DNA of 64,000 bases. It comes from Alphaproteobacteria bacterium (GTDB taxonomy: Bacteria; Pseudomonadota; Alphaproteobacteria; Caedimonadales; UBA9215). Below are positions 4,354 to 32,480 of this stretch, in pieces (position 1 is the stretch's first letter; every line of letters begins with the position of its first letter). The DNA lies in NCBI GenBank assembly GCA_009993885.1, contig JAACSN010000004.1, forward strand, positions 59,106 to 123,105, in the 5' to 3' direction. Under the pieces are notes generated by a model. That model worked only from the letters and a program-made list of their open reading frames with translations. It did no database searches and was not told the origin of the DNA. Made by a program: the position numbers and the translations under genes.

Positions 4354-4488
4354 AAAACTGATAATGATTGACTAAACATTAGAATAAGAAACCTTTACTT
4401 GTATTTTTTCAGAAAACGTTAAAAAATTCTATAGTTTGATAGCAACATATGAAAATTCATTTTAAGTTAATAGGGGAGGAGATAAAAA

Positions 4489-4782: not shown

Positions 4783-4857
4783 CAGAAAAAATATTGACAA
4801 AAATAATTATATTATATATAAAAATACCCATTATTAAATATGTAAATTTGTCATTAA

Positions 4858-5388: not shown

Positions 5389-5539
5389 AAAAATACAGGG
5401 AGTATTTAAAATGGGAAAAATTGGCACATGGTCAACGACGCCCTCATCTAACAACCAAACGCCGCCTCATGGCTGGCCCGAAGAGCAAGCGTCATCAACT
5501 TCTTAATACTTTGCATGAGAAAACATTAGGCACTTCACC

Positions 5540-6016: not shown

Positions 6017-6300
6017 AGGTTTTCTCCTGAGTTGTTTAAGATTATATTTTGAAAGGTTTCTAATATGGTTGGGTGCGTCTCTTCCATGTAGATCAATAGC
6101 GTTTCTTGATAGACTAAACGCTCGGCTTCACTTTGAGAGAACCCCCCATCGTATTGAAGAATGCCCGCACGCTCATGATAGAGATAATTGATATCTTTAT
6201 CGTTTTGAGTGGGAACACCGGTAACAGCGGGAACAACGTCTCTAGCCTTAGGTTCTACAGTTACCACTGCCTCTTTTTGGGTGGGAATAGCCGGTAACAA
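6013..6300 (-). CDS. Hypothetical small protein with an ERAGILQYDGGFSQSEAE motif; start codon uncertain (TTG)
   Basis: The ORF is open up to nt 6441, but the only start codon in frame is TTG at 6300. As I recall, the E-R-A-x-I-x-x-Y-D-G-G...EAE motif recurs in primase-associated island proteins. Confidence 0.45.
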   Translation of the reverse strand: MLPAIPTQKEAVVTVEPKARDVVPAVTGVPTQNDKDINYLYHERAGILQYDGGFSQSEAERLVYQETLLIYMEETHPTILETFQNIILNNSGENL

Positions 6301-6463
6301 AACACCTGTGTTGTTTAATACATTACCACTTGTTACCGGTGATGTTGCATGGTGCGGTAATACATATATCCCCTTGGAATTGTTGGTATCATTGCCCTTA
6401 AAATATTTATTACCGGTGCTCCCGCTGTTCCCGGTGTTTTTTTAAGAAAGTCAAAATAGGGAC

Positions 6464-8149
6464 TCATTCCACTTCCTCCACCGCTCTATCAGAGCTAATG
6501 CAAATCATTTTTGCATTCTTATTCAAATGAGGTAGACGTGTTGTTTTTGTATATCGCCCGTCAGAATCAACCTTTAAGAGACCCTGCTTCAAAAGCTCCT
6601 TTTTAACAAATTGAGGGTCAAGCCCTTTGCAAACTTCTTTATTAAATAGGTCTGTGAAAAAGAAGAAATCATAGGAACCATCATCTTTTTTACGCCTATA
6701 CCCCGCTTGATTATAAATTCTTTCTTCAACAACATTTTCGGGAATACCTCCTATTAAGGCAAAGCGACTTAACTGGTGAGTTTCAATGAAAGCTTGAACT
6801 TGCTTTACGGCTTCATCGGCTTCATGGGAGCCGCTCCCTCCCCTTGCTTCAATGAAGCTCAAGAAACACTGCAAGATGCCTTGAGTAGCCTCACCCTCTT
6901 CATAAGGCAAAATCCCTAATTCAATAGCAAGCTCTGCTGCATAGGCCACCAAAGCAAAACGATCCGCAACACGCTTTACCTGTCCATCTGCTTTAGGATC
7001 AACATGCTTTGCAATGAAATCCTTTTTAAAATCTTCGTAAAATGTAAGTATCTCATTTTTATGTTGGCTCACATGATGCAAGAACGCTCTGATTGGTGTG
7101 CCGTAATATTGGGCTGTTGTTTGTTTAAGATGATTTGCAAGCTCTCCTCCGTCTTTAAAGCCGTTTAAGGTATCAAAGAGACGATGATCTTTACCCGCAT
7201 CAGCCAAAACATCCGCCATACGCGCCAACATTCCGGCATTTGCTCTTTTCCCTGATTCGTTCACTTTGTCGGCCAAAGAGATTTCTCCGGTGCTGAGAAA
7301 CAACAGTTTCCATGTATATTTTCTACGCAATCCCCCTTTGGCTTTGAGCCTGTTTTTACCGGACTCATTTGCCAGCATATAAGCGATTTCACCGGCTTCT
7401 TTGCCATCCACTTGCCCAAGCTCATCAAGACAGAGCAAAGCATGATTATGAGACTCAGCGACCGCTTCCAAGGCATTGCCTGTCGTCTTCCATTGTTGGA
7501 TAAATTGAGGGCTTCCCCATACGGAGGCCGCAACCGCAAGAGCCGTACTTTTGCCAATGGAGCTTGACCCTTTAAGGTGAAAGCCACCACTTTCCGCGTT
7601 AATAAGAGGAAGCAGAGGCGCTGCAAACGCACATCCAAGGGAAAAGATCAGACGGCTATTTCCTCGGCAAGGTTTAGCAACATGTTCTTTCCACTCTTCT
7701 AAGGTTCCCGCCTCCTGAAAGCCTATAAAATTACTTGTGCTACTTTGCAGATAAACCTCATCGGACTTTGGAATTGATCCGTCTGGCAAGATAAAAGAAT
7801 CCTTATGCCAGCCAATACGGGGCACACAGAGCACTTTCTTGGAAAGGGGTGTGTTCTGAAGATAGTCAGTTAGTTTGTTACGCAGGCCGCGTTTGTTGGT
7901 TATGCGAAGCCCTCGAGAAAGAAGCATACTAAAAAGATCGGAACAATCACGAGCAAAAGTATCTAGTGGGATCGTCAACTCATGACAGTGCTGATCAAGA
8001 TCAGAGAATTGAACCAACCGCCCCCAACTCTCGCTATTATCATCCCGTGTGTGGGCAAGGACTGTGATGGGAGAAGAAAGCCAGTCCTCTTCAAAATAAA
8101 GGCCGTCTTCTTTCAATGAGAAGCCACTTGGTAAAGAACCTTTTTTCAT
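6464..8149 (-). CDS. DUF927-type P-loop helicase (primase-associated replicative helicase of integrative elements)
   Basis: Walker A GSSSIGKST and Walker B-like LLCLDELG. Its start overlaps the stop of the Toprim gene. Confidence 0.8.
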   Translation of the reverse strand: MKKGSLPSGFSLKEDGLYFEEDWLSSPITVLAHTRDDNSESWGRLVQFSDLDQHCHELTIPLDTFARDCSDLFSMLLSRGLRITNKRGLRNKLTDYLQNTPLSKKVLCVPRIGWHKDSFILPDGSIPKSDEVYLQSSTSNFIGFQEAGTLEEWKEHVAKPCRGNSRLIFSLGCAFAAPLLPLINAESGGFHLKGSSSIGKSTALAVAASVWGSPQFIQQWKTTGNALEAVAESHNHALLCLDELGQVDGKEAGEIAYMLANESGKNRLKAKGGLRRKYTWKLLFLSTGEISLADKVNESGKRANAGMLARMADVLADAGKDHRLFDTLNGFKDGGELANHLKQTTAQYYGTPIRAFLHHVSQHKNEILTFYEDFKKDFIAKHVDPKADGQVKRVADRFALVAYAAELAIELGILPYEEGEATQGILQCFLSFIEARGGSGSHEADEAVKQVQAFIETHQLSRFALIGGIPENVVEERIYNQAGYRRKKDDGSYDFFFFTDLFNKEVCKGLDPQFVKKELLKQGLLKVDSDGRYTKTTRLPHLNKNAKMICISSDRAVEEVE

Positions 8150-9066
8150 GATTGCGCCCCTCCCTTTAAAACTTGCTTTCTAACGGCATACAGTCCACCC
8201 AAAACATGAAGGTCATTAAAGTCTGTTGGTTTAGACTCTCCCCTGATAGCGTCTGAAAAGTCCGGGTAAATTACTTGAGCGCTATGTTTCTTTGCAACTG
8301 CTCGGGCAGCGACTAAGCCAGTATTAACCTCTTTCCATTGATCGTTATCCGCTGCAACGGTAATAGAGAGATCAGGATATTTATGCCTAATAGCCTTTAC
8401 TACAGGCTCAAGGTTACCCGCATCAAAAGCAACCACCGTGGTAACCCTTGTCGCTTCATAAAGACTTGCTGCTGTCGCATAACCCTCACAGACATAAACC
8501 TGAGAGGACGTATCTAAAACGCCTAAGGTATGGAAGCAGCCTTTCTTCTTACCGCCGGACAAAAACTTCTTATCTCCTGTGGACGCAATAGTCTGGAGAC
8601 TCCATAACTTGCCAGAGATATCGCATAAGGGCACCACAAGGGATTTAATGTTTCCAAATCTCACGCCATAGGCTTGCACCTGCTTCTTTTGCAAATAGGG
8701 AGAAGTGCCATTTTCATTTAGACCTTTCCATAGATTAGAGGCCTCCAAAAATGCTTTGTCTTGACGATCCGTGGTCTCTTTCTTGTGGAGCTTTTTTGCT
8801 GCTTCAATACGGAAGTCTATTTCCTGTTGTTGCTGTGGCGAGGCGGTTCCCTTGATAGAAGACCACTTATAAGATTTTCCTGTTTTCCAATCACCATAAA
8901 CACCACCATAAGAGCCCTTAGTGTTTTCATATAAGACATACCAGCCGTCTTTATTGCGCCCCCCATTGCTAGAAAATCGATGAACTTTCCCGTCCGTAAC
9001 AATATCAATCGGACATTGGAGACCCTTAGTACTCATAGCCTTCTTAAACTCATTAAACATCTGCAC
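8146..9066 (-). CDS. Toprim-domain DNA primase (P4 alpha / TraC-like N-terminal part)
   Basis: GKVHRFSS..GGRNKDGWYVLY N-terminal motif. The Toprim core reads VYVCEGYATAASL...VAFDAGNL...AADND. Confidence 0.75.
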   Translation of the reverse strand: MQMFNEFKKAMSTKGLQCPIDIVTDGKVHRFSSNGGRNKDGWYVLYENTKGSYGGVYGDWKTGKSYKWSSIKGTASPQQQQEIDFRIEAAKKLHKKETTDRQDKAFLEASNLWKGLNENGTSPYLQKKQVQAYGVRFGNIKSLVVPLCDISGKLWSLQTIASTGDKKFLSGGKKKGCFHTLGVLDTSSQVYVCEGYATAASLYEATRVTTVVAFDAGNLEPVVKAIRHKYPDLSITVAADNDQWKEVNTGLVAARAVAKKHSAQVIYPDFSDAIRGESKPTDFNDLHVLGGLYAVRKQVLKGGAQS

Positions 9067-9367
9067 CTCCGTTAGGGGTGTGTTCTTTACTTTGAGGGGA
9101 ATCTTCTACACACACTTGAGATAATGGCTCTAAAGGGTGTTCCCTTGAAGGAAACATAGCGCCTATGCGCAACCCTAATTTTCCTGCAGAAGCATATTGC
9201 TTATGGGCGATCTGAGCCTCTACATTGAAAACTAGCCTTGAAACAATATCCCCAAAAGACCGGCAGTTATCAACTTGTGATAGAGGGGGGAATTTGCTAT
9301 TTTTCACTTGAAAGTCATTGGTTTGCTCGTCCTTACAGGGGGCGGGCATTTCTTTTGGGCTCGTCAT
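9053..9367 (-). CDS. Hypothetical island protein
   Basis: 104-aa ORF that overlaps both neighbouring genes. No recognisable motif. Confidence 0.4.
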   Translation of the reverse strand: MTSPKEMPAPCKDEQTNDFQVKNSKFPPLSQVDNCRSFGDIVSRLVFNVEAQIAHKQYASAGKLGLRIGAMFPSREHPLEPLSQVCVEDSPQSKEHTPNGGADV

Positions 9368-9579
9368 TATTTCACCCCTCCCTTACAAGATTTAATCCAT
9401 TCTTGGATGTCAGATTCAAGCCATCCAACACTGCGCTTTCCAATCTTTATTGGCGAGGGAAAAGAAGCCGCTTTAATATAAAGGTAAATGCTAGAACGGC
9501 TTAATCCTGTAAAAGCCTTAACGTCAGGTAACCTTAATATTTTATAACTCGGGTTGTTTTGGGAATTGTTTATGTTCAA
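9367..9579 (-). CDS. alpA: AlpA-family transcriptional regulator / excisionase-like HTH
   Basis: ILRLPDVKAFTGLSRSSIYLYIKAASFPSPIKIGKRSVGWLESDIQEWI is the typical AlpA/Xis HTH. Confidence 0.8.
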   Translation of the reverse strand: MNINNSQNNPSYKILRLPDVKAFTGLSRSSIYLYIKAASFPSPIKIGKRSVGWLESDIQEWIKSCKGGVK

Positions 9580-9676
9580 TAGAACCTCTCCTTGTTTATT
9601 AATGTTCTATAAACAAGAAGGCCATAGGCGTTTTTTGGGCGAAACACTAAAAGATATATAAAAATCATTTAGAAAA

Positions 9677-9703
9677 TCCTTGCAAACCATTGATTTGCAA
9701 GGA
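9677..9703 (-). terminator. Hairpin with a perfect 10-bp stem followed by a T-rich tract on the minus strand, downstream of the int-proximal orphan gene
   Basis: tccttgcaaa-ccattga-tttgcaagga. The minus strand continues TTTTCT. Confidence 0.45.
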
Positions 9704-9734
9704 GAAAACTTATTTTATTTTTGGGCGACTAATT

Positions 9735-10424
9735 TTATTTTTTTAGCCTAAAGCCTAATCGAGGTTTTATTTCATCTTTCCACCCCAAATTACTAAGGTG
9801 CCTCTCAATATTTTCTGATGAGCTTTCAGAAGCATCTAAAATGTTTAATGTTACTAGATAAGATAAAAAAGCTGATGCCGCCTTTTTTTTCGTGTTTAAG
9901 TTTTCGTCTTTAGTTTTACTGCTTGCTATGAAAGCATCGAGATTTTCCTTTAATATTACCTCAATATTTTTTGTTCTTTTTTTGTTTTGAAAGACCCTAA
10001 TGCCTGTAAGTTTCGAGGAGCCTATTATTCCCGAAGAGTGAACAAAATCTATTTCATCATGCTCAATCATTCTTTGAATATTTTCAGGGGCTATTCGTTC
10101 CCTAGTACGAATAGCTACATCTGCTTCCATTTCCAGTGTCCCATTCATAAATTTTTCAGCAAACTTTTTTTGAATTGAAAGCAATCTAAGATTATATAAC
10201 GCCTCCATGGGATGTTCAGCCGGATTAATTTTGCGATAATTAAAGTTTCTTTTAGCTATATCTTTGAATCTTGGGATTTGTCTATAGGTAGATTTTAAAT
10301 TTTTTATTTCCTCAGGGTGTGAGAAATACTCAAAAGCTTGATATAGAGGTAAGCGTTGTTTTAACGCGAATATCTCATAGTCTTGTCGGCTAATTAAATG
10401 TGACCAGTCTCCTGACATTATCAT
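9735..10424 (-). CDS. Hypothetical protein (AT-rich orphan between integrase and alpA)
   Basis: 229-aa ORF starting 5 nt after the integrase stop. No recognisable motifs. Confidence 0.5.
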   Translation of the reverse strand: MIMSGDWSHLISRQDYEIFALKQRLPLYQAFEYFSHPEEIKNLKSTYRQIPRFKDIAKRNFNYRKINPAEHPMEALYNLRLLSIQKKFAEKFMNGTLEMEADVAIRTRERIAPENIQRMIEHDEIDFVHSSGIIGSSKLTGIRVFQNKKRTKNIEVILKENLDAFIASSKTKDENLNTKKKAASAFLSYLVTLNILDASESSSENIERHLSNLGWKDEIKPRLGFRLKK

Positions 10425-10428
10425 TTCC

Positions 10429-11643
10429 TTACGCTGTTTTTTGAAAATTAACTAATGTAACGTTGTCTTCTCTTGAAAGAGAGGCTAGGTAATCAGCCCA
10501 CCATTGCATCATGGCTCGCCTTTCAGTAAGGCGCTGTGCGTGGTTATAAGAGGCTCTGACTTTATTGCGTTCGGCATGGGCCAATTGCAGCTCAATAACA
10601 TCTGAGTGAAAACTATGTTCATTAAGAATCGTAGAGGCCGTTGCACGAAAACCATGGGGCGTTGCTCGGCTGTGGTAACCCATACGGTATATGGCATATA
10701 AAATTGTATTTTCGCTTATGCATGTCATCGGCTTATTACGATTGGGAAAAATGTGCTCTCTGTGCCCGCTAATGGGTTCAAGCTCTTTTAAAATTGAAAT
10801 GGCTTGTGTGGAAAGAGGGACAATATGGGGCGTACGCATCTTCATTCTTTCAGCAGGAATGCGCCACTCGTTTTTCTCAAGGTCAATTTCTTCCCACTTA
10901 GCTCCACGTAATTCACCGGTACGCACAAACGTTAAGAGGAGAAGCTTAAAGGCGAGTTTTGTTTGCAGCTCCCCGTCATAATTTTCTAACTTTGAAAGAA
11001 AATCAGGCAATTCTCTTGCTTCTAAATAGGAATAATTTTCTTTTTTACGTGTTTTTAAAGCGCCCTTTAAATCACTTGAAATGTCTCTTTCGGCTCGTCC
11101 TGTGGCAATAGCATAACGAAATACTTGCCCCGTTGTTTGTAAGGCACGCTTAGCTATATCAACAGCCCCACGGCTCTCAATCTTTTTTAAGGCTGCCAGT
11201 AGTTCAGGAGCTGTAATATCTTGAACGGCTTTAAAGCCAAGAATAGGGAAAATATCTGCTTCAAGCCTCCTGAGGACATACGTTGCATGGCGTTCTGTCC
11301 AAGCCGATTTACGATCGGTATGCCATTCTCTGGCAATAATCTCAAAGGAGTTGTTTGAACTAATGTATTGAGTAAGCTTTTTTTGCTTTTTTAATTGGGA
11401 TGGATCTTGCCCGTCTGCAAGGGTCTTGCGGGCTTCGTCACGTTTTTCACGGGCTTCTTTAAGAGAGACTTCAGGATAAACACCAAAAGCAAGACGCTTC
11501 TCTTTTCCGCTATAGCGATATTTCAAACGCCAGTACTTGCTTCCGTTAGGCATAACCTCAAGATAAAGACCGGCTCCATCAGAGAGCTTTCTTGACTTCG
11601 CTTCAGGCTTCGCGGTTTTACAGACTATATCGGTTAAAGACAT
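10429..11643 (-). CDS. Tyrosine integrase, P4/CP4-57 type with an N-terminal DUF4102-like arm-binding domain
   Basis: N-terminus: KLSDGAGLYLEV.PNGSKYWRLKYRY.GKEKRLAFGVYPEVSLKEAREKRDEAR. Catalytic region: HGFRATAST...LAHAERNKVRASYNH. It lies adjacent to a tRNA. Confidence 0.9.
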   Translation of the reverse strand: MSLTDIVCKTAKPEAKSRKLSDGAGLYLEVMPNGSKYWRLKYRYSGKEKRLAFGVYPEVSLKEAREKRDEARKTLADGQDPSQLKKQKKLTQYISSNNSFEIIAREWHTDRKSAWTERHATYVLRRLEADIFPILGFKAVQDITAPELLAALKKIESRGAVDIAKRALQTTGQVFRYAIATGRAERDISSDLKGALKTRKKENYSYLEARELPDFLSKLENYDGELQTKLAFKLLLLTFVRTGELRGAKWEEIDLEKNEWRIPAERMKMRTPHIVPLSTQAISILKELEPISGHREHIFPNRNKPMTCISENTILYAIYRMGYHSRATPHGFRATASTILNEHSFHSDVIELQLAHAERNKVRASYNHAQRLTERRAMMQWWADYLASLSREDNVTLVNFQKTA

Positions 11644-11806
11644 TTGGGGGCATTTCCATTAGGGGCTCTATTGATGCCCCCATTTGTGCCCCAATATGCC
11701 CCCGGCTGTTATTAATTTTAACGGGACGTTATTGGACTAATAATATCAGAAAGGTAAGCATTGTCTAGGGATTTTGGACTTTATGAGACTTCTTTAAAAC
11801 CCAGGA

Positions 11807-11896
11807 TGGCGGATGGGGTGGGATTCGAACCCACGAAGAGCTTTCACCCTTGCCGGTTTTCAAGACCGGTGCCTTCAACCGCTCGGCCACCCATCC
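11807..11896 (-). tRNA. tRNA-Ser(UGA)
   Basis: The reverse complement folds as a 90-nt class II tRNA. The acceptor stem is GGATGGG/CCCATCC followed by G-CCA. The anticodon stem is CCGGT/ACCGG with loop CTTGAAA. It has a long variable arm and T-loop GGTTCGAATCC. Confidence 0.9.
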
Positions 11897-11920
11897 GGAA
11901 CATCCTGGTTTTAAAAGTAA

Positions 11921-11998
11921 TGGGGCGAGTGATGGGAATTGAACCCACGGCCTCCAGTGCCACAAACTGGCGCTCTAACCGACTGAGCTACACCCGCC
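11921..11998 (-). tRNA. tRNA-His(GUG) with an encoded G-1
   Basis: Reverse complement: G-GCGGGTG...CCAGT-TTGTGGC-ACTGG...GTGGGTTCAATTCCCAT-CACTCGC-C-CCA. Confidence 0.9.
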
Positions 11999-18073: not shown

Positions 18074-18769
18074 ATGTTAAGCTATGTTGTTATGATTCCT
18101 GCTATTACTATCCTCCTTCTTATCATCGGGGGTATCGCAGCTCTTTTTATCAAACCTGTTGAATTCAAAGATTCACGAACTTCTGTTTTTATTTCAATTA
18201 TGGGTAGCATTGCCGTTGTTGTACTGTCCTTTAACGTGATTCTGAACACCTTAGGACTTGAGTCACAAAATTCCATCAATAGAGCTAAATTCACCAAGGA
18301 AGCCATTGATAAATTATGGCTTTTTCCCAACCAACTTTTAAAAGAAGCCGAGCATGCCCGCCCCGAATTCATTGCAAGCCTGTATTACAACAATGCGACT
18401 TTTTATAAGTTAACAAATGGAAAAACAACGCCCTCAACCCTGCGCTCCGAGGCAGAAGAGCAATACATCACCATTGTCTTGATTCAATCTTGGGAAGATT
18501 ATTTAACCCTCCGAAATCTAGATCATACGGGTGAAATTGTTTGGCTTCATAATTTTATACAATGGGCTCAGAGCCCCTATTTAAAAAAGAAATACGATGC
18601 CATAAAATATAATTTCTCCCAAAGCACCATAGATTTCGGGGACCTCTTATTTGAATATGCCGCCCGTATCCCGGTTCCTTCAGAAAATCCTACCGTCTAT
18701 AAAGAAACCGTTGAGAAACTGCTCAAAGATACCCGTTTGCAACAGATTTTTAAAACCACGGGACATTAA
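18074..18769 (+). CDS. Hypothetical membrane-anchored protein
   Basis: Two N-terminal hydrophobic helices. No recognisable family motif. Confidence 0.5.
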   Translation: MLSYVVMIPAITILLLIIGGIAALFIKPVEFKDSRTSVFISIMGSIAVVVLSFNVILNTLGLESQNSINRAKFTKEAIDKLWLFPNQLLKEAEHARPEFIASLYYNNATFYKLTNGKTTPSTLRSEAEEQYITIVLIQSWEDYLTLRNLDHTGEIVWLHNFIQWAQSPYLKKKYDAIKYNFSQSTIDFGDLLFEYAARIPVPSENPTVYKETVEKLLKDTRLQQIFKTTGH

Positions 18770-18816: not shown

Positions 18817-18845
18817 TTGACACCCTGTCTTTGATAAGATACGAT
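18817..18845 (+). promoter_or_regulatory. Sigma70-like promoter candidate upstream of the first PvcA-like gene
   Basis: TTGACA (18817-18822), a 17-nt spacer, then TACGAT (18840-18845). Confidence 0.35.
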
Positions 18846-18991
18846 TTTTGAATGATGTATTTATCTTCACAACTCTTTTCTACTGATCATATAAATTGGC
18901 GCCGTTGGCGCTAAATCCCTTTTTGCTAACCTCTTGTTAGCCGCCTATACTTAAAATTTTTTCCTCGTTATAGTCATGTGTGATCAAAATC

Positions 18992-19993
18992 ATGTTAAAT
19001 TTTTTAAAAACTTTTATTTTTCTAACCGCCTTAAGCTCTTTATGTGTGGCTTCAACCTTAGGTACGGAAAACCTGTCTCGAGCCCGCCTTTTCTATAATA
19101 CCCTTAAGCCACATATTCTAACCTTTGATATTGATGCCCATGCCACCGGAGACCTCGGCCGAACAGATCTCTCACCCACCGGCACAAAACAGCTCTTGGA
19201 AAGTCTTGAAGACCTAATTAAAACGGGGGAAGAGATCCATTTCCTTTGCCTCGCCTTCCCCTTCAAATCATCTAACAAAGAGTTTTTCGTTGACGGAAGC
19301 CTACCTGATATGGCGGAGTACCACAGCTTAGAATACTTACAAAATGTAATCAAAGAACTCAAAGATGTTTATCCGAAGGTTTCTCTTACAATCATGACCG
19401 ACGGTTTATTATTTAATGATCTTTTTGGCATTCCTGATAAAGACGTTATCGCCTTTGAAAGCCGTCTAAAAACAATCATTCAAGAGTTTCCGAACTTAAA
19501 CCTGCTCACCTTGTCACAAGCTTTACAAAAAGATGCCATTTCTCTCAAAAATTTTAAAAAAGCCGGAGCAGAATATAAGCTTCCAAAACCCCTTCCCGCT
19601 TCACGCCTTAAACTCCTTAAAAAACGCATAAGACACGAAATAAATCATAAAGCCCACTCTTTTCCAAACCTGTCGCCTGAGCAACAAGATATAATGCTCA
19701 CAGATTTAGCCATGCAGCTCATCAAACGAGACGAGTACCTCAAAATATTTGTGCAACGTTCTCAAAGAAAACAAACGCTTCGCCTTTCTATTCATTATCA
19801 ATCGGACCTATCAAAAAAAATTGGTCTCAAAATAACCCCCGCTTCTCTTATTTTTCCTTGGAATGGTGTTTTTGTCGTTTCTCAAAATGGCCAAGGCCAA
19901 ATCATTCCCAAAAGCCAAGTAGATACAAAATACTATCAAAAAGAAACGAGAACCATCCGGGATCTTCCCCTATCTTTTTACCGATGGCGATAG
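18992..19993 (+). CDS. DIT1/PvcA-family (isonitrile synthase-like) protein with a predicted Sec signal peptide, paralogue 1
   Basis: Start re-called to the ATG at 18992 (MLNFLKTFIFLTALSSLCVAS). Family core: HFLCLAFPFKSSN...LPDMAE..SLEYL...YP.....I.TDG.LFNDL.GI.D..V..FE..L. Confidence 0.7.
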   Translation: MLNFLKTFIFLTALSSLCVASTLGTENLSRARLFYNTLKPHILTFDIDAHATGDLGRTDLSPTGTKQLLESLEDLIKTGEEIHFLCLAFPFKSSNKEFFVDGSLPDMAEYHSLEYLQNVIKELKDVYPKVSLTIMTDGLLFNDLFGIPDKDVIAFESRLKTIIQEFPNLNLLTLSQALQKDAISLKNFKKAGAEYKLPKPLPASRLKLLKKRIRHEINHKAHSFPNLSPEQQDIMLTDLAMQLIKRDEYLKIFVQRSQRKQTLRLSIHYQSDLSKKIGLKITPASLIFPWNGVFVVSQNGQGQIIPKSQVDTKYYQKETRTIRDLPLSFYRWR

Positions 19994-20075
19994 AGTTTCT
20001 TTAAAACTCTATAAAACCAACCTGCCTCACCACAGTACAATTTATAAAAAAACTTAAGACACTAAGGAGATTACC

Positions 20076-21293
20076 ATGTCTAAAAAAAATACTTGCCTAT
20101 TTGGCACGCCAATCCTGCTGGCTTTTTTTCTATTTTTTAACATCGAAAAAGCGAGCGCTTCCTTTGAAATTGACGAAGAGAGCCCCTCTGAAATTGAACG
20201 TCTCATTTCGCATTATAAATCGACACTTCCCACGATTGGCAACAACCTAAGTCCCGAGACTATTATTGACTTTCTTCAGCTTTTTTCACAAAAAGATGAG
20301 GTTGACGGTAGGGAAAAACTCATAAAAAAAACAAGGAAGCTTATGAAAACAAATGCCCCGCTCCATTTTATCTTACCGGGTTTTCCCTTCAAATCTTTCA
20401 ATGAAAAAAAAGTAATATCCCCGGGAGAAATTGACTTAGCCGACGTCTTAGCTTTGACAACTCTTGACCATCTTTGCCAAGAAATCGGGAAGATCTATGA
20501 GGCCGGAGCTTGCGTTACAATTATCCCCGATGCTATCCGAATTAGTTGCTTTTTAGGTGTTCAAACTCAACGTGATGACTATATTTCCAATCTTCGCAAC
20601 CTTTTGCCCTCAGAGTGCCTCCATATTAAAGAGATTCATGAATTTGAAAGTATGCCCACAACAGGAAAACCCTTAGAAGAGGTCGCCCTTTTTCTGTCCG
20701 AAAGAGACACCGACGGCATAGAAAAGGATCCTTATATTCCTTTTGTTCGTCATGAGTTAGATTGTCCCTTTTATTATAAAAAGATAAAGGAAGAGATCCT
20801 AGCAAAGGTTCGCACACAAAGGACTTTTCGAGACAGTTTCCCCGAAGAATTAAAAGAGAGTGTCCAAGAGTTATCCTATGATGAATTTGCGCTCTATTTA
20901 ACAGAAGCAATCCAAAACAATGATGAAAATCAAGAAACATATAAGGCTTTGATGCGTACTTTAAAGACACAATTTAGTCTTAAAACAATGATTAAAAAAT
21001 GTGCCTTAATCAATGCCCAAGAAGCAAAACAACTTTCGGGATATATAAGCGACCTATTTGAAGGTTACGAGAATTACCTCCGCTTATCCGTTAATCAACA
21101 CCACAAAGATATTTCACAGAAACTTCCTTTTCAAATGATTCTCGGAAGCCACATAACACCTTGGCATAATACTCTCTTTATAAACTCAAAAGAAGAGATT
21201 CTGCTAGCCTCCCGCAATAAATTTGAGGACGGTTACCTTAAGGAAGAAAGCTACCGAGGTGTGAGTATTAAATGGATTTCACAAAGTAAATAA
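20076..21293 (+). CDS. DIT1/PvcA-family (isonitrile synthase-like) protein with a predicted Sec signal peptide, paralogue 2
   Basis: MSKKNTCLFGTPILLAFFLFFNIEKASA then SF. Core: HFILPGFPFKSFN.KKV....EIDLAD..AL.TLDHLCQEI..IY..GA.V.IIPD. Confidence 0.7.
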   Translation: MSKKNTCLFGTPILLAFFLFFNIEKASASFEIDEESPSEIERLISHYKSTLPTIGNNLSPETIIDFLQLFSQKDEVDGREKLIKKTRKLMKTNAPLHFILPGFPFKSFNEKKVISPGEIDLADVLALTTLDHLCQEIGKIYEAGACVTIIPDAIRISCFLGVQTQRDDYISNLRNLLPSECLHIKEIHEFESMPTTGKPLEEVALFLSERDTDGIEKDPYIPFVRHELDCPFYYKKIKEEILAKVRTQRTFRDSFPEELKESVQELSYDEFALYLTEAIQNNDENQETYKALMRTLKTQFSLKTMIKKCALINAQEAKQLSGYISDLFEGYENYLRLSVNQHHKDISQKLPFQMILGSHITPWHNTLFINSKEEILLASRNKFEDGYLKEESYRGVSIKWISQSK

Positions 21294-21300
21294 CAAATTG

Positions 21301-21328
21301 CCACGGGGAATTCTCCGTGGTCTTTTTA
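21301..21328 (+). terminator. Terminator-like hairpin after PvcA-like paralogue 2
   Basis: ccacgg-ggaattct-ccgtgg followed by tcttttta. Confidence 0.55.
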
Positions 21329-21574
21329 TAGATTCTTTTCAAGTAAAAGAGGCACTGCAAAAGAGAGTCATTACAGTGTTTTTTGCAGCCCTGACAAGAA
21401 AAGGAGAACGAGCCTAAAGGGGCTTATGCAGAGGATTCTATAATCTTAATTCTCTTCATGAACAGAACTAAAAGAGTCTCCGCGACGCAATCGTGCGGAT
21501 ATTGTATCAACTTTAATAGACTTGAGCAAAGAACTGCACTTTCAAGACTAAGTCAAAGGCCGCCGTGACTTCTT

Positions 21575-22993
21575 TTAAGCAACAGACGTATCACCGGGCG
21601 CATCAAAATCCATACTTTCTGCGTCTAAATCCGTATCTGCCGCTGCCTTAGTCGTTTCGTTACCGGGCTTTTCTGTGATCGGTGCCGATTCCGCCGGTTT
21701 TGACACAGGTGTTGAACCTGTCGAAATACCTTGCCCTTGGAGCATTTTTTCAATTTGCTCGGTCACAAGCCATTTTACAAGAGACGGTAAATGGGTATCC
21801 AGCCAATCTTTTAGCATCGGCCGTAAAAGTTCTCGCATTAGCTCTTCAACGGTATACCCCCCGACACGCTCCGGCGTCACAGGACCCGAAGGCCCGTCAC
21901 CACCACCGCCGCTTTTTGATTTAGAGGAAAGACGGCGCGCAATATCTGCAAGTTCTGAAAAAGCGGCAGCAGATTCTGCCATTGTTTCCTTTGAAGCAAG
22001 GTCTTCCACAGGTGCTTTTGTGGCTTGCTTCAGTAGATTTTCCACACCGATCTCGAAATTACCCGCAGGTGCTTCGGGCGCGCCGACGGTCTCCGAGATT
22101 GCTTTATCAAGAAGCAAGGCTTCTGCCTCAGAGAATTTAGGCGCAGGCACACCTAGTTTTTTATCATCGGCAACAGAGTCTTTTTTTGCAACATCTTGGG
22201 CGGGCGCTTCTTGTGCCTCCGCCTCTGCATCCGTTTCATTAACAGGGGTTTCCGGCTCAGGTACGACATCACCTTCTTCAAATTCCGCAACAGTTTCTAT
22301 CGTGGTTTCAGCTTCTGCAGCATCATCGTTTTCAGAGGTATCAGGCGCGTCAAGCTCGGCCTCGGGCTCGTCCGTAGCGACGACATCTTCTTTCATTTCT
22401 TTTTCTTCACTCAAACGCTTTGGTGCATCTGCTTCTGCTTCCTCTGATGCTTCTGCTTGCTCTGAAAGTTCCTCTTTTTCAGCAGTTTCCGAGGCCGCCG
22501 CAGACACAGTTGCACCGCCCTCCTTTTGTCCCTCGTCAACTTGCGTTAACTCAATCTTCTTTATGTCAGATTCTTCAGTTTCTTCTGATTTTGTATCCGA
22601 AATTTGCGCCCCTGTTTCTTTTTTAGCAAGATTCGTAACAGAACCATCCTCTTCTAAAACTTGCGTCAAGATAAAAACATCAGCAGAACCGGACGGTTTT
22701 TTCAAAGAGGCATCCTTCCTCTCCGACTCTTTAATCAAGGTTTCTAAACTCTCTTTGGTTTTTAGGGGAACTCCCTCAGGAGCATGTTCTTTTTTAAAAG
22801 GATATTCCGCTTCTTGTCCTTCAGCTGCTCCTTGCCCGCTATCCCCCTCATTTTCCTTTTCATGAGGCTCACCAAAGTGATCAAAACCTTGTTCAAGATT
22901 TTGTTTAATCACGTTTCGAATGGAAGAAAGAGCTTCAGATACCTGTTCGTCTGTTTGGGTCTCAGGCTCTTTTCTTAGGGCATTTTGAGTCAT
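21575..22993 (-). CDS. popZ: PopZ-like pole-organising protein (DUF2497) with a greatly expanded acidic linker
   Basis: N-terminal helix SEALSSIRNVIKQ. C-terminal TVEELMRELLRPMLKDWLDTHLPSLVKWLVTEQIEKML. The roughly 330-aa middle is E/D/A/T/S-rich. It lies directly after tolC. Confidence 0.7.
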   Translation of the reverse strand: MTQNALRKEPETQTDEQVSEALSSIRNVIKQNLEQGFDHFGEPHEKENEGDSGQGAAEGQEAEYPFKKEHAPEGVPLKTKESLETLIKESERKDASLKKPSGSADVFILTQVLEEDGSVTNLAKKETGAQISDTKSEETEESDIKKIELTQVDEGQKEGGATVSAAASETAEKEELSEQAEASEEAEADAPKRLSEEKEMKEDVVATDEPEAELDAPDTSENDDAAEAETTIETVAEFEEGDVVPEPETPVNETDAEAEAQEAPAQDVAKKDSVADDKKLGVPAPKFSEAEALLLDKAISETVGAPEAPAGNFEIGVENLLKQATKAPVEDLASKETMAESAAAFSELADIARRLSSKSKSGGGGDGPSGPVTPERVGGYTVEELMRELLRPMLKDWLDTHLPSLVKWLVTEQIEKMLQGQGISTGSTPVSKPAESAPITEKPGNETTKAAADTDLDAESMDFDAPGDTSVA

Positions 22994-27695: not shown

Positions 27696-28508
27696 CTATC
27701 CTTTTATCTTTCCGTCAACGGTATAATCCACCCGCGCTCGCACAATTTTACCTTGTTTGTATTCTGTTTCCGATCTCAACGCGCCATTGGGATAATAATC
27801 TCGATCCGTTCCCACTTTCAACCCGTCATCGTATTCTTCAATTCTTTGCAATGCCCCGTCGGGAAAAAAGATTTTCTGAAATCCATGTTTAATCCCTCGC
27901 ACATATTCACACGTTTTGACCAAATGTCCAAGCTTATCATAATGCTCTGCAACGCCTTGTGTTTCACCAAGAACCTTGGGGAATTTTGTAATAACATTTC
28001 CTTGGTTATCATATTCAATGCTCAATCCATGGGGTTGATTATCCTCATACATCGTCATAGAGGTAACCCGACCTCGCTCATAGGCTTCCACAACGCCATG
28101 CATCACATCGTTGCGATAAAACACTTTACGAGCCATTTCCCCTTTGACATTATATTCAATGGCAGGCCCGTCTTTTACATCATTAATATAAGTTGCCTTA
28201 AGGTAGATCACCCCCCCGAGATAAAACTCGCAAATCCCGTTGCGCATGCCGTTTTCAATGACAAGTATTTCTTGTAACGCCCCCGTATTCTCATCGAGAA
28301 TCTGATGCACACCGTCATCCAAGGGTCGTTCTGCCTCGGCCTTGCGCCGGGCATCTTCATCAGCAATGGCTTTATCAACCTGCGCCGTAATCAAAGCGGC
28401 AAGAGCAACGGCCGGAGGGACTTCAGGGAGCGTTTTTGACTCGGGAGCAGCTTCATCAGTCACTTCTTCTTCTTTAAAATTCATATCATGGGCTGATTTT
28501 TCAACCAT
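27696..28508 (-). CDS. MORN-variant (YwqK-like) repeat protein, encoded directly downstream of vgrG
   Basis: Start re-called to the ATG at 28508 (RBS AAGGTGA 5 nt upstream; MVEKSAHDMNF). It has at least 6 repeats of the type G.....Y...G.......Y..G..HG, for example DYYPNGALRSETEYKQGK. Confidence 0.7.
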   Translation of the reverse strand: MVEKSAHDMNFKEEEVTDEAAPESKTLPEVPPAVALAALITAQVDKAIADEDARRKAEAERPLDDGVHQILDENTGALQEILVIENGMRNGICEFYLGGVIYLKATYINDVKDGPAIEYNVKGEMARKVFYRNDVMHGVVEAYERGRVTSMTMYEDNQPHGLSIEYDNQGNVITKFPKVLGETQGVAEHYDKLGHLVKTCEYVRGIKHGFQKIFFPDGALQRIEEYDDGLKVGTDRDYYPNGALRSETEYKQGKIVRARVDYTVDGKIKG

Positions 28509-28521
28509 ATTTTTCACCTTG

Positions 28522-31275
28522 TTACGTAATAACTGTAAAACTGGAAACTGTGAATGTGGTTGCACTCGCCGTCACAGTCATGGAACCGCCGGAGGTTATC
28601 GTGTGACTGCCGCCGGAGGTTAAGCTAATGGAGCCGCCGGCCGTAACAGAAGTTGCCCCTCCCGAAGTCAAACTAACGGATGATCCTGCGGTTCCCGTTA
28701 TACTTGAGCCTGCCGTAACGGAAGTGCTTGAACCAGAAGTCGTGCTGATGCTTGAACCGGCTGTAACACTCGTACTACTTCCCGAGGTTGCGGTAATTTT
28801 TCCACCCGCCGTCATAGAAATGTCACCGCCCGCTTTCACACTAATATTACTGGCAGCCGTTACATTAATATTTGCCCCGGATTTAACATTTATGTCATTT
28901 GCGGCCGTTACATTAATATTATCTTTACCCACAATGTTAATGTTACCCGTTACTGTTAGATTATAAGTCTCGGTATAAGTTCCGTAATAATGTCCCGTTA
29001 CATCTTCCGTTTGGTTTCCCGCTTCAAGGGTCAGGGTTGAATTTCCCGATTGAAGGGTTATAATACGATTACCCAAATCAATCATAAGGCGTTGATTTCC
29101 CTTTTTCAAACGGGTAACTTCATTTCCTTGATCGATCAAAGTTCCCTTATTACCGAGATCAATTTTAAGCTTTTTATTGCCCGTCTCGATACACATAAGA
29201 TGATTGCCCGTATGAATATACGTTTTATCATCTCCGGTAATAATTTCATGGGTATTGTCACCTGTTGCAATAACCGTATGACGGTTTCCTTTGATGATTT
29301 TATGGAAATCATTTCCTTCTTTAAGGACAACTTCACGGTTTCCTTTAATGATGGTTTTGCGATCGTTACCCTCTTTAAAAACTCGGGACATCGTTCCCTT
29401 ATCGTGCTGGTATTCCGTTAGTCCTTCTTTGATATAAGTCGTGTCCCGAATGGGTCCGTTACCGCTCATAAAAGAGGTATAGCGACTTCCGGTTGAAAGC
29501 TCTAAGATATCGTCTCCGGCACCGGCGGGAAGATCTTGCCCCTTTGGCGTGGTTTTAGGCACCGCAGAGCCGCCGCCTTTCAAAAGGACGTTACGGTCTC
29601 CATGGTCAAGCACAAGCCACTTAGACCCTTTTTCAATATGCTTTGTTTCCGTTTCAATTGTGTAGCTGTCATCATCTTTTTCAGCCCGTTTATAAACTTG
29701 TTCTTCACCGGTTTTATCCTCAAAACGGTGTTCGTTGAACTTTTCGGGTCCCGCAGGAAAAATACTGGATTTTGTTTTAAAACCGCTTTTTGTCGGTGTG
29801 AATTCACCGGTCACGCGTTCCGGCAAATAAGGAGGCATATTATCCGAGTTATATAAACTTCCTGTAACCACGGGACGGCTCGGGTCACCGTCAAGAAAGT
29901 TCACCATCACTTCCATACCGATGCGAGGCGTAAAAAGCACACCCCAGTTATTACCGCCCCAGCCTTGTTGCACGCGAATCCAACAGGAACTCGTATCATC
30001 ATTAGGCCATTGACGATCCCATTTGAATTGTACTTTGATACGGCCGTATTCATCGGTCCAAATTTCCTCACCAACCGGGCCGGTTACAATAGCCGATTGG
30101 ATACTCTCAATTTTCGGACGCGGGGTTTTTCGAGGCGGGCGATAAATAACGCTATCCTCAAAAGCCTTAAAACTATTGCGGTATAAATAGCTCCGTTCTC
30201 GAATATCCCTGTCTTCATGGAGATCCGGTTCCACGCCGCTTTGCACTTCATGGGTGATACGATGAATCACATACTTTTTACCCATCATGTCGGCGCGATG
30301 GTGTTTGGCCAGCAAAAAACTGCCCCCGTTTGTCAGATAAGGCGCAATGGATTCGCCCGTTATATATTTTTGCAAGGCTTGTGCTTCTTCAAGACGCAGT
30401 TTTATTAAAGCCTCTAAGCGTCCTTGAGCAGGAATGTCTTCATGATCGACCTGCCCCGGATATTCATATAAATCCCCCTTCAACGTTTCTTGGACAGGGC
30501 CGGCCATATCCATAGAATACAACTTCATGCTCGCCGTCTTCATATTATAATCGTTGGCTGCATGGGATAAAGAAGCAACACGTTCGCTAAAATCACATTG
30601 ATAAAGGGTATTTAAAAAAGCCTTGTCGGGAGAAGAATCCGTATAGCTTAATTGCTCACTACCGACGCAAGGTTGAAAAGCCGTCGGAGCATCTGCCAGA
30701 ATCAGGGTATGTTTTCCCTGTTCATGTTTGAAAAAATAAAAGACGCCTTCCTCTTCCATTAAACGACACACAAACTCAAAATGTGTTTCATTATACTGCA
30801 CGCAGTATTCCCTTATAACCTGACCGCAGGTTGTGGTTTGAAACAAAACATCCGTCACACCGTGTTCCGTTAGAACCGTTTTAATAATATCCAAGGGTTT
30901 TTCATTTTGGAAAATACGACAATCGCTAGAAAGCGTTAAGAGCCAAAGTTTCGGGTAAACCTTTAATTCATACCATGTAACTTCATTCGCATTGGGGTCT
31001 GAAGTTGCATACTGCATAAAATGCCCGACGATCCCGTGGAAATAGCGGTCTCCGTCCTGAAGCTTTATGGCAAAGGTGACTTCTTTTCCGACAATACTGT
31101 CAAAGCTAATATCAGGCGAGGGTGAAGCCACATGAGCCTCGATCACAAACAGTTCGTCAATACCTTCGTGAACCTTCATACGCCGCATATTTAATAAATC
31201 GGGATCCCCCAAAGGATGATCAATGGTTATTGTTGCCTCAAACTGTGTTAGCTGTGTTCCTCTTATGCTTGACAT
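28522..31275 (-). CDS. vgrG: Type VI secretion spike protein VgrG
   Basis: VGEEIWTDEYGRIKVQFKWDR; SCWIRVQQGWGGNNWGVLFTPRIGMEVMVNFLDGDPSRPVVTGSLYN; NEHRFEDKTGEEQVY. The C-terminus has a long beta-helix repeat region. Confidence 0.92.
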   Translation of the reverse strand: MSSIRGTQLTQFEATITIDHPLGDPDLLNMRRMKVHEGIDELFVIEAHVASPSPDISFDSIVGKEVTFAIKLQDGDRYFHGIVGHFMQYATSDPNANEVTWYELKVYPKLWLLTLSSDCRIFQNEKPLDIIKTVLTEHGVTDVLFQTTTCGQVIREYCVQYNETHFEFVCRLMEEEGVFYFFKHEQGKHTLILADAPTAFQPCVGSEQLSYTDSSPDKAFLNTLYQCDFSERVASLSHAANDYNMKTASMKLYSMDMAGPVQETLKGDLYEYPGQVDHEDIPAQGRLEALIKLRLEEAQALQKYITGESIAPYLTNGGSFLLAKHHRADMMGKKYVIHRITHEVQSGVEPDLHEDRDIRERSYLYRNSFKAFEDSVIYRPPRKTPRPKIESIQSAIVTGPVGEEIWTDEYGRIKVQFKWDRQWPNDDTSSCWIRVQQGWGGNNWGVLFTPRIGMEVMVNFLDGDPSRPVVTGSLYNSDNMPPYLPERVTGEFTPTKSGFKTKSSIFPAGPEKFNEHRFEDKTGEEQVYKRAEKDDDSYTIETETKHIEKGSKWLVLDHGDRNVLLKGGGSAVPKTTPKGQDLPAGAGDDILELSTGSRYTSFMSGNGPIRDTTYIKEGLTEYQHDKGTMSRVFKEGNDRKTIIKGNREVVLKEGNDFHKIIKGNRHTVIATGDNTHEIITGDDKTYIHTGNHLMCIETGNKKLKIDLGNKGTLIDQGNEVTRLKKGNQRLMIDLGNRIITLQSGNSTLTLEAGNQTEDVTGHYYGTYTETYNLTVTGNINIVGKDNINVTAANDINVKSGANINVTAASNISVKAGGDISMTAGGKITATSGSSTSVTAGSSISTTSGSSTSVTAGSSITGTAGSSVSLTSGGATSVTAGGSISLTSGGSHTITSGGSMTVTASATTFTVSSFTVIT

Positions 31276-31277
31276 TG

Positions 31278-32480
31278 TTAAAAAGCAACCTCCAATTCAT
31301 AATGAGTTCCAGCAAAGGATCCCCCGTTAAACTCGCTAAATCCGCTATTTTTAGCAGGCTTTTTAAATTTAATTTTGATCCCCCGCATGAAAGATTCACG
31401 CAGTTCTTTAAATCTTTTACTATACTCTCGGTCTAATTGAGTAAGGCGTATGTACTGCCCTTCTCTTTTTACAAGGGGGTTAAGCCCGCGAAATTCCGGT
31501 TTATAAATCTCATCAAAATCCGCTCCGTCGACCACACTGTAAAAACGGAAGGGTTGACGACACTGTATTAATAATCCGTGAATCACCCTGTCCTTTATCT
31601 GCATAAGTTTTTGCAGCACGGCTTTATCCGTCCCAAAACGAATTTCTTTCACGGTTAAGACATCCAAATCAACGGCTCTCTTCATCGCAGCCGCAACCCA
31701 GCGATTCACAACATAATTTTGAGGAGCGCCCCAATACCGTTCCGTAAAATAAAGAGACAAAGCACCTAACTTTGCAGCAGACTTTTCCGTTACAAAAAAC
31801 CATTTTCCTTCCTCGAAACGCAAATCATCCATGATCCGCGCAATTTCCCTAAGGGTTAGTAATTTATAAGAATAGGCCAACCTTAGCGTCATTTCAATTT
31901 CAATGGCAGAGAGAAAAGGAGGGTTTTGGTAAAGAGCACCAAACTCCTTATTAAGGGGATCAACATCTTCGGCTGATATGTTGGCCTTCATTAACCAAGG
32001 CTCAAGTCCTACGGTTTTCAAATAAGCGCTATGAGCTGCTAAATAATAAGGTTTGTCGGAATTCTTAGGACGCAAAAAAAGCGTTCCTTGGTGAGAAAAA
32101 ACAGAATGTGCAACCGGCTCAAGCATGCCGGAAATTTGCTCTTTTAAAGGGCGTTTAAAACGCTTTAAAATCACGTAGACCCCCAAAGCATGATCAAACA
32201 AACTATAAGCCGGAAGAGATCTGAAATAGCGACTGGGTCCTGCATTATCTATAAAACGCATCCGTTTTATAGCGGGATGATTAATTAAGGCCTTAACCAA
32301 ATTATTATCCACGACGACATCCCCGTAAAGAGACGTAATTGTTGATTGCGTCTTATTTTCTTGAGGAGCGGTGGTTTTTACTTCCTGAACTGTAAAGATC
32401 AAAACGAAAAAGGTGCAAACAAAGCACCAAAAACCGCGATGTTTCTTTTCTGTGAGCCTGTGATTTTGCAAACGTAACAA
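31278..32480 (-). CDS. Membrane-anchored or secreted HD-fold (COG1078-like) protein with a degenerate catalytic dyad; TTG start
   Basis: The family signature P.IKRMRFIDNAG......SLFDHALGV is present, but the expected LLHD.GHGPFSH reads MLEPVAHSVFSH. Hydrophobic N-terminus GFWCFVCTFFVLIFTV. SD GGAAGAGG lies before the TTG. The stop is 2 nt before the vgrG ATG. Confidence 0.55.
   Translation of the reverse strand: MLRLQNHRLTEKKHRGFWCFVCTFFVLIFTVQEVKTTAPQENKTQSTITSLYGDVVVDNNLVKALINHPAIKRMRFIDNAGPSRYFRSLPAYSLFDHALGVYVILKRFKRPLKEQISGMLEPVAHSVFSHQGTLFLRPKNSDKPYYLAAHSAYLKTVGLEPWLMKANISAEDVDPLNKEFGALYQNPPFLSAIEIEMTLRLAYSYKLLTLREIARIMDDLRFEEGKWFFVTEKSAAKLGALSLYFTERYWGAPQNYVVNRWVAAAMKRAVDLDVLTVKEIRFGTDKAVLQKLMQIKDRVIHGLLIQCRQPFRFYSVVDGADFDEIYKPEFRGLNPLVKREGQYIRLTQLDREYSKRFKELRESFMRGIKIKFKKPAKNSGFSEFNGGSFAGTHYELEVAF

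Follow-up and report, generated by a model that had tools for sequence, protein, structure and literature searches.

Why would a bacterium keep, side by side, two predicted exported relatives of the isonitrile synthases with no gene nearby for the oxygenase that usually accompanies these enzymes? The question is raised by a 64-kb stretch of alphaproteobacterial DNA from contig JAACSN010000004.1 (referred to here as the window, meaning the whole stretch that was analysed), in which two adjacent genes, designated A and B, code for proteins of the DIT1_PvcA family (PF05141). An original prediction made from the sequence had proposed that the fold serves here in a non-canonical extracytoplasmic or host-directed role. 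That proposal, still a prediction, is strengthened by the findings that A and B form a conserved, signal-bearing pair, fall into sister clades of their own, and are under purifying selection. The interpretation favored here, held tentatively but with a real chance of being correct, is that A and B constitute a two-component extracytoplasmic enzyme pair carrying out isonitrile-synthase-type chemistry, probably on host-derived substrates.

Both proteins score well above the PF05141 gathering threshold of 26.4 bits, A with 132.3 bits (E 3e-38) and B with 106.9 bits (E 1.7e-30, residues 88-385), and the family-core motifs quoted in the original prediction are present in each: HFLCLAFPFKSSN and PDMAEY in A, HFILPGFPFKSFN and IDLADV in B. 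The description of the two as tandem, distantly alike paralogues also holds, with adjacent open reading frames (ORFs) whose products are 27% identical across 85 residues (BLASTP, E 7e-9). B exceeds the 273-position Pfam profile in length owing to extra helices at approximately residues 230-300. Against the NCBIfam equivalog model for PvcA (NF045653, cutoff 600), A reaches 64.6 and B 43.4 bits; on profile scores the two are family relatives of PvcA and not PvcA orthologues. None of the NCBIfam models scanned with A and B scored above its cutoff, and none is specific to either clade. Sequence searches of the PDB matched only PvcA (3e59) and PIsnA (9dh4, 9dhm, 9dhn); 9dh4 is a complex with Tyr and 9dhm one with product. 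AlphaFold models of A and B, with predicted local distance difference test (pLDDT) values of 90.5 and 92.5, gave 9dhm, 9dh4, and 3e59 as the sole PDB matches at E<=0.001 in Foldseek. The best matches of A were PIsnA 9dhm and PvcA 3e59, with template modeling (TM) scores of 0.66-0.79, and those of B were PIsnA and PvcA (E ~3e-13, TM <=0.71), while class I tyrosyl-tRNA synthetases and cyclodipeptide synthases appeared as faint distant relatives. Close homologues are scarce, amounting to 10 clusters for A and 11 for B among 5.8 billion sequences. A is 99% identical to P0001 and 73% identical to DD412_06130 of Holosporales UBA9215, and B is 90% identical to P0011 and 66% identical to DD412_06125 of the same genome. 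In their source databases, proteins of these clades are annotated mostly as hypothetical or generically as Dit1/isonitrile synthase.

The wider family was surveyed with a profile search of 1.84 billion representatives, which returned 1836 members, the best 163 of which were scored with separate hidden Markov models (HMMs) for A and B. Among these 163, approximately 55 proved A-type and 43 B-type, with two further B proteins recognised later; the split was clean, and canonical synthases score equally poorly on both models. The A/B family thus delimited comprises ~100 representatives at 50% identity. In a neighbor-joining tree, the A-type proteins form a perfect clade (55/55, in 93% of 30 bootstrap replicates), a division that is partly circular with labels taken from the HMM scores, and A and B together form a clade separate from the canonical enzymes, a separation that is independent of the labels. 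Two sequences that seemed misplaced in the tree turned out to be B partners. Both clades carry E at a position where D is invariant in the canonical synthases, which is, as read from the alignment, a shared derived character. The clades are only ~20% identical to each other, and each has a signature that the window proteins display: DID (46-48), E156, R212, and G292 in A, and Y47, L51-P52, and T129 in B.

A and B are adjacent wherever the contig permits, in at least 13 distinct lineages (by locus label, the window with the near-identical contig L001, then L002, L005, L008, L011, L012, L013, L014, L015, L016, L022, L028, and L030), and their order is reversed in L015, L022, and L033. All-against-all comparison of the flanks identified the pair as the sole element common to these loci; the search for a third conserved neighbor returned only a generic ABC-ATPase similarity in 5/13 loci, which was taken as paralogue noise. 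In a working definition of the pair, the A-type protein has the DID motif, an R replacing the canonical F, PW[HN]G, and an N-terminal export or anchor segment, and the B-type protein has a YxxxLP motif, the extra helices, an N-terminal export or anchor segment, and a gene adjacent to that of an A-type protein. Every one of these features is found in the window pair. All A/B loci are of low GC content (32-46%). Compared with the UBA9215 orthologues, the ratio of nonsynonymous to synonymous substitution rates is 0.195 for A and 0.222 for B, indicating that the pair is under purifying selection. The pair, rather than either gene singly, is on this comparative evidence the conserved unit. The window and L001 (Ga0100381_1000054; gene A at 10001-11002) are identical in gene B and differ at three nucleotides in gene A; all three differences are nonsynonymous (R/K, A/D, P/S, residues 212-225), a number too small to interpret.

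The lineages that carry the pair offer a view of its likely setting. The nearest named relative, UBA9215, is a metagenome-assembled genome of the Holosporales, and there, too, the A and B genes are adjacent. Obligate intracellular bacteria have the ATP/ADP translocase as a hallmark, and a gene for this protein (TLC, PF03219; 10548-12095 of L028) lies directly 3' of a distant A/B pair, identifying the L028 lineage as an energy parasite. Both the named relative and the translocase beside a related pair point to an intracellular, Holosporales-type lifestyle for the window bacterium.

The localization of A and B is central to their interpretation. Signal peptides were judged with a home-made heuristic built on n-, h-, and c-regions and the (-3,-1) rule and calibrated on the window's own proteins. 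A Sec signal cleaved by signal peptidase I (SPase I) was called from a positive n-region, an uncharged h-region with 7-16 hydrophobic residues, small residues at -3 and -1, and the lack of a twin-arginine motif or lipobox. Applied to all 60 window ORFs, the heuristic picked out TolC, a PBP5-like carboxypeptidase, the secretin, and a class-3 lipase and passed over trigger factor, ClpX, Lon, RpoA, adenylate kinase, and the ribosomal proteins. By this heuristic the signal peptides originally proposed for A and B are recovered, each with the full set of features. A has the n-region MLNFLK (K6), the uncharged h-region TFIFLTALSSLCV, and a predicted cleavage site C-V-A/S after residue 20, and its residues 1-21 have pLDDT <50 in the AlphaFold model. 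B has the n-region MSKKN (K3K4), the h-region TCLFGTPILLAFFLFF, and NIEKASA/S after residue 28, followed by an acidic stretch, with charges of +3 and -4 on the N- and C-flanks of the hydrophobic core. The two h-regions contain 13-16 hydrophobic residues.

The same segment recurs among relatives. A hydrophobic core at the N-terminus occurs in 45/55 A-type and 37/43 B-type proteins compared with 10/62 canonical synthases, and in B it is kept in every close homologue (P0011-P0018). The more positive of the two flanks is the N-flank in 34 versus 3 A-type and 36 versus 0 B-type cases, an asymmetry that fits an N-in/C-out orientation. Across the relatives the position of the segment is kept and its sequence is not, and some members instead have lipobox-like or longer anchor-like N-termini at the same place, which suggests that an extracytoplasmic location, rather than a particular sequence, is conserved. 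Two other export routes were considered and rejected: A is not a candidate lipoprotein, as its Cys is not conserved (Y in P0003) and the -1 residue is Leu, and twin-arginine translocation of A or B is disfavored by absence of the motif. Conserved cysteine pairs specific to the exported clades, which would be a sign of periplasmic disulfides, were searched for and none was found.

Whether the predicted exported proteins could be active enzymes was approached by comparing columns conserved in at least 80% of 66 canonical synthases with the A and B clades. The outcome of this comparison was mixed: most invariant polar residues are kept in family-wide columns, and A lacks the TPWH histidine and B the RLSIH histidine. 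Both window proteins retain K, S, and N of FPxKSxN, Y (column 444), R and S of RLSIH, K (column 765), and P and W of TPWH, and both have replaced the second K (column 415; F99 in A, V113 in B). A keeps D and E of PDxxE, D and G of SDG, R (column 722), and the RLSIH histidine (column 754, H268), and has F155 for Y (column 485), R212 for F (column 587, where 87% of A-clade proteins have R), and N291 at the histidine position of TPWH (column 793). B keeps D of PDxxE and of SDG, Y (column 485), F (column 587), and the TPWH histidine (H364), and has D123 for E of PDxxE, A153 for G of SDG (column 457), E316 for R722 (lost across the B clade), and N340 for the RLSIH histidine. The wider clades mostly keep both histidines (H754 in 96% of A and H793 in 88% of B), which makes their complementary loss a feature of the Holosporales sub-lineage.

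Partner enzymes were sought with an HMM derived from the dioxygenase portions of nine proteins in which a synthase and a dioxygenase are fused. The model readily detected PvcB/IsnB beside canonical synthases in the Providencia and Breoghania loci used as positive controls (E 1e-62 to 1e-67), and it had no match in the 64-kb window or at any A/B locus. Pfam scans of 36 window ORFs were also negative for TauD, cytochrome P450, and nonribosomal peptide synthetase (NRPS) genes. The absence of PvcB/IsnB and NRPS genes nearby, as first reported, is therefore borne out within the window, as is the description of the neighbors as a membrane-anchored orphan, popZ, and tolC. Upstream of the pair lie a DUF599 gene and then the orphan, whose product has hydrophobic N-terminal segments and no Pfam match. 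The orphan was considered as a module member and rejected, since it accompanies the pair only in the near-identical L001. Downstream, in order, are genes for a PopZ-family protein, TolC, a rhodanese, PCMT, and a major facilitator superfamily (MFS) transporter, with VgrG farther away. The PopZ-family/DUF2497 protein is itself unusual in having a very long acidic low-complexity middle in 472 amino acids, compared with a 167-position PopZ profile.

How might such a pair function? In the canonical reaction, the amino nitrogen of Trp or Tyr is joined to a carbon of ribulose-5-phosphate to form an alpha-isocyano acid (PMC7949033). In the model proposed here, an ancestral isonitrile synthase would have gained an export signal and then duplicated, and the copies would have grown interdependent. 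A and B would cross the inner membrane by means of cleavable Sec signal peptides, and the mature proteins would act together in the periplasm, or possibly further out, as a hetero-oligomer or in consecutive steps. If catalytically competent, they would join a primary amine to the carbonyl carbon of a ketose phosphate, yielding an isonitrile or its hydrated N-formyl form. The substrates, envisioned as Tyr, Trp, or another amine together with ribulose-5-phosphate or a similar sugar phosphate, would most plausibly derive from the host in view of the Holosporales-type obligate intracellular lifestyle, passing from the host cytosol through the outer membrane. To our knowledge, the isonitrile-synthase reaction requires neither ATP nor a redox cofactor, which makes a periplasmic version chemically feasible. 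With no PvcB/IsnB-type dioxygenase, the product at the bacterial surface would presumably not be processed beyond a simple isocyano or N-formyl compound. It is tempting to go further and envision an obligate two-subunit, cofactor-independent periplasmic isonitrile/N-formyl synthase of obligate intracellular bacteria, acting on host metabolites or on the bacterium's own envelope amines to generate, at the host-symbiont interface, an isonitrile molecule or surface modification for metal capture or inhibition of host metalloenzymes; this more specific proposal is speculative, and we regard it as doubtful in its full form.

Several observations weigh against the model of a cooperating, exported enzyme pair. 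Invariant positions of the canonical synthases are changed in both proteins (columns 415, 587, and 793 in A; 415, 457, 722, and 754 in B), so that activity or substrate may differ from those of the known synthases, or one partner may be inactive. The B partner is split into two overlapping ORFs next to an intact A in L005 (5392-6725), L006, L007, and L013 (2827-3925); recurrence of the same split in three independent samples (L005-L007) makes a genuine frameshift or pseudogene more probable than an error of assembly. In Holospora curviuscula NRB217 (L019, 4614-6779), neither family member is complete: one is a B-like ORF in which the motif has degenerated to FPFAKS, and the other consists of the N-terminal half of an A-like protein with its C-terminal fragment encoded separately behind it. 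In this intranuclear symbiont the module thus seems to be in decay. This fragmentation and the split B genes suggest that the module is dispensable in some lineages. L031 (1084-3149) carries two A-type genes in tandem (A+A'), both with long anchor-like N-termini, and lacks a B-type partner; it lies on a contig of 34% GC whose neighboring genes include CT398-like, SpoIID, and M48 peptidase genes. It may belong to a different lineage, perhaps a chlamydia-like one, in which the module takes a variant form. Finally, a few relatives with long anchor-like N-termini have an ambiguous charge asymmetry, export and cleavage of A and B are heuristic predictions, and ribulose-5-phosphate is a cytoplasmic metabolite whose supply to the periplasm is speculative.

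Some of these features would suit other explanations. A and B might be two independent synthases, partly redundant or differently specialised, that form no complex and generate their own products outside the cytoplasm, two tandem copies in the manner of the cyanobacterial AmbI1/AmbI2 and WelI1/WelI2. Tandem IsnA duplicates of this kind exist, with I2 reported as functionally redundant (PMC4236562), and both the A+A' tandem of L031 and the intact A genes beside split B genes (L005-L007, L013) would be accommodated. We nevertheless consider this account unlikely, given that A and B, which are ancient and deeply diverged clades, are still adjacent in 13 lineages despite full turnover of the flanks and inversions of gene order, that loss of a different invariant histidine by each partner here is hard to fit to two self-sufficient enzymes, and that an IsnB partner is lacking, unlike in the cyanobacterial case. 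A more radical departure would be re-use of the fold, after export, as a non-enzymatic periplasmic ligand-binding or structural pair, for example for uptake or sensing of host amino acids or sugar phosphates. The replacement in each protein of three or four residues with >=97% invariance among the canonical synthases, one histidine each included, and the PvcA equivalog scores so far under 600 would agree with such a role. It is rendered improbable by the persistence, across ~100 diverged representatives, of most of the polar residues that are invariant in the family (K, S, N, D, E/D, Y, D, R, S, K, W), by the presence of both histidines in most members of the wider clades, and by the flank comparison, in which no transporter or sensor gene was consistently linked to the pair.

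The remaining explanations concern location. The N-termini could be uncleaved anchors or start-codon artefacts, in which case catalysis would face the cytoplasm and use cytoplasmic Tyr/Trp and ribulose-5-phosphate, with the dioxygenase encoded elsewhere or not needed. Both known substrates are indeed cytoplasmic, several A-type relatives have uncharged segments of >=22 residues with positive residues on both sides, and Dit1 functions without a 2-oxoglutarate (2OG) dioxygenase (PMC7345447). This account has little to recommend it for the window proteins, however: their positive n-regions, h-regions of 13-16 residues, small -3/-1 residues, and the acidic stretch in B follow the pattern of cleaved N-in/C-out signals. 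An artefact of start-codon choice, a caveat the original prediction had attached to its own claim, is countered by the occurrence of the segment in ~85% of A/B members and its rarity in canonical synthases, and by a perfect Shine-Dalgarno sequence 6 nucleotides before the B ATG, whose ORF includes the signal. At the other extreme, A and B could be host effectors that, once past Sec, cross the outer membrane by a secretin-dependent pathway or in vesicles and synthesize a toxic or metal-binding isonitrile within the host from Tyr/Trp and ribulose-5-phosphate. Both substrates are abundant in the host cytosol, the organism is Holosporales-like, and the window encodes a secretin as well as other exported hydrolases. 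Yet the pair has no type II secretion operon linked to it, and the lipobox-like or anchor-like N-termini of several relatives imply retention in the envelope rather than release; we consider an effector function to be a slim prospect.

The local sequence is compatible with joint expression of the two genes (Table 1). A and B look like one transcription unit, plausibly a two-gene unit framed by 18817-21328, in view of the promoter-like sites, the Shine-Dalgarno sequence before B, and the terminator-like hairpin after B. The hairpin upstream of gene A is probably the terminator of the upstream orphan gene; since it lies between the first promoter-like site and gene A, the second such site may be the promoter in use.

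Table 1. Features of the A/B locus and other features of the window (window coordinates; a slash marks the predicted signal peptidase cleavage site).
Feature	Position	Strand	Remarks
Probable integrated mobile element	49-11997		
Helicase	49-4353		1434 amino acids; C-terminal MTES_1575 restriction-endonuclease-like domain
DUF927 protein	6464-8149		
Toprim protein	8146-9066		
Tyrosine integrase	10429-11643		Abuts the two tRNA genes
tRNA-Ser	11807-11896		
tRNA-His	11921-11997		
Upstream orphan gene	18074-18769		
Sigma-70-like promoter match	18817-18845	+	TTGACA-17-TACGAT; 10/12, consensus match only; start coordinate of the original prediction
GC-rich hairpin, then T-run	18896-18914	+	8 pairs, 5 G-C; terminator-like scan
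Second promoter-like site	18923-18951	+	TTGCTA-17-TATACT; 9/12; ~40 nucleotides 5' of gene A start
Alternative in-frame GTG start of gene A	18980	+	
Gene A	18992-19993	+	333 amino acids; A-type predicted exported isonitrile-synthase-fold protein, PF05141
Predicted signal peptide of A	18992-19051	+	MLNFLKTFIFLTALSSLCVA/S; Sec (SPase I), heuristic n/h/c analysis
Shine-Dalgarno sequence of gene B	20064-20069	+	AAGGAG; read directly from sequence
Gene B	20076-21293	+	405 amino acids; B-type predicted exported isonitrile-synthase-fold protein, PF05141
Predicted signal peptide of B	20076-20159	+	MSKKNTCLFGTPILLAFFLFFNIEKASA/S; Sec (SPase I), heuristic n/h/c analysis
Intrinsic-terminator-like hairpin and T-run	21300-21331	+	9 pairs, 6 G-C; 7 nucleotides past gene B stop
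PopZ-family/DUF2497 protein	21575-22993		
MORN-repeat protein	27696-28565		
VgrG spike protein	28522-31275		DUF2345 tail
Orphan	31278-32480		400 amino acids
Class-3 lipase-domain protein	47968-49851		627 amino acids; signal-peptide-like N-terminus
Secretin-domain gene	53839-55503		PF00263; lipoprotein-like N-terminus (…FFLSSC/D)

Other parts of the window merit mention in their own right. The integrase and Toprim genes of the probable mobile element are also present on L001. The VgrG gene, flanked by the MORN-repeat and orphan genes, belongs to a region (27696-32480) that lies ~7 kb from the A/B pair and may encode a type VI secretion spike together with its cargo or an effector. The lipase-domain protein is a candidate secreted hydrolase. 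The secretin gene is a lone one that adjoins ORFs resembling a ribosomal-protein/secY/adk cluster (not scanned); no other secretion-system genes were seen among the Pfam-scanned window ORFs.

The fold of A and B, and probably their type of chemistry, are known; the novelty lies in where the proteins are predicted to reside, in their obligatory pairing, and in their genomic and ecological context. In the literature consulted, isonitrile synthases figure as members of secondary-metabolite clusters, draw on ribulose-5-phosphate, and are commonly coupled to a dioxygenase. A published survey of PF05141 domain architectures lists only single-domain, dioxygenase-fused, and NRPS-fused forms (PMC5974471), and our literature search found no paper tying proteins of this family to signal peptides, the periplasm, or the Holosporales. 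With A and B, two sequence-distinct PF05141 subfamilies are defined. Conservation of a signal-bearing pair that has no dioxygenase, in reduced genomes of low GC content of which at least some are host-dependent, would imply either extracytoplasmic chemistry on host substrates or a new extracytoplasmic reaction of the fold. Should the more speculative proposal of an obligate two-subunit synthase hold, isonitrile biosynthesis would be known outside the cytoplasm for the first time, and the enzyme family would gain its first hetero-oligomeric member. There is precedent for an isonitrile at a bacterial surface: rhabduscin is found at the surface of insect pathogens, where it inhibits host phenoloxidase. 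Isonitriles also bind transition metals (PMC5974471), and in light of this property and the rhabduscin precedent, it is enticing to speculate that an envelope synthase could be a general host-interaction device of Holosporales-like endosymbionts. The pair in any case provides a concrete target in organisms for which almost no molecular host-interaction factors are known.

Comparison with characterized members of the family clarifies what A and B share with them and what sets them apart. The resemblance to the L-tyrosine/L-tryptophan isonitrile synthases PvcA, IsnA, and PIsnA (PDB 3e59, 9dh4, 9dhm) extends to the fold, with Foldseek E of 1e-13 to 1e-17 and a TM score reaching 0.79 for A, and to the core motifs FPxKSxN, PDxxE, xDG, RLSxH/N, K, and TPWH/N, although the first of these reads FPFKS in A and B and FPAKSPN in the canonical synthases. 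The latter mostly lack an N-terminal hydrophobic segment, whereas A and B carry predicted Sec signal peptides, and an adjacent or fused Fe(II)/2OG dioxygenase, characteristic of the isn and pvc clusters, is missing from the A/B loci. A and B further differ from these enzymes in forming separate clades with their own signature residues and an obligatory-looking pair. Yeast Dit1, which functions in synthesis of the spore-wall N-formyl-tyrosine, works with the cytochrome P450 Dit2, a type of partner for which none was seen among the scanned window ORFs near A and B. Dit1 resembles A and B as a PF05141 member that acts without a 2OG dioxygenase, and its product enters a cell-envelope structure (PMC7345447). 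Dit1 resides in the spore cytosol (PMC7345447), whereas A and B carry predicted export signals. A similar gene arrangement is that of AmbI1/AmbI2 and WelI1/WelI2 in the hapalindole-type clusters, where adjacent synthase paralogues are likewise kept together across strains (PMC4236562). Those duplicates are both close to IsnA/PvcA, reside in large clusters with an IsnB (I3), and include an I2 reported as redundant (PMC4236562), and no export signal has been reported for them. A and B, by contrast, bear predicted export signals, are ~20% identical, stand alone among housekeeping genes, and show complementary residue losses.

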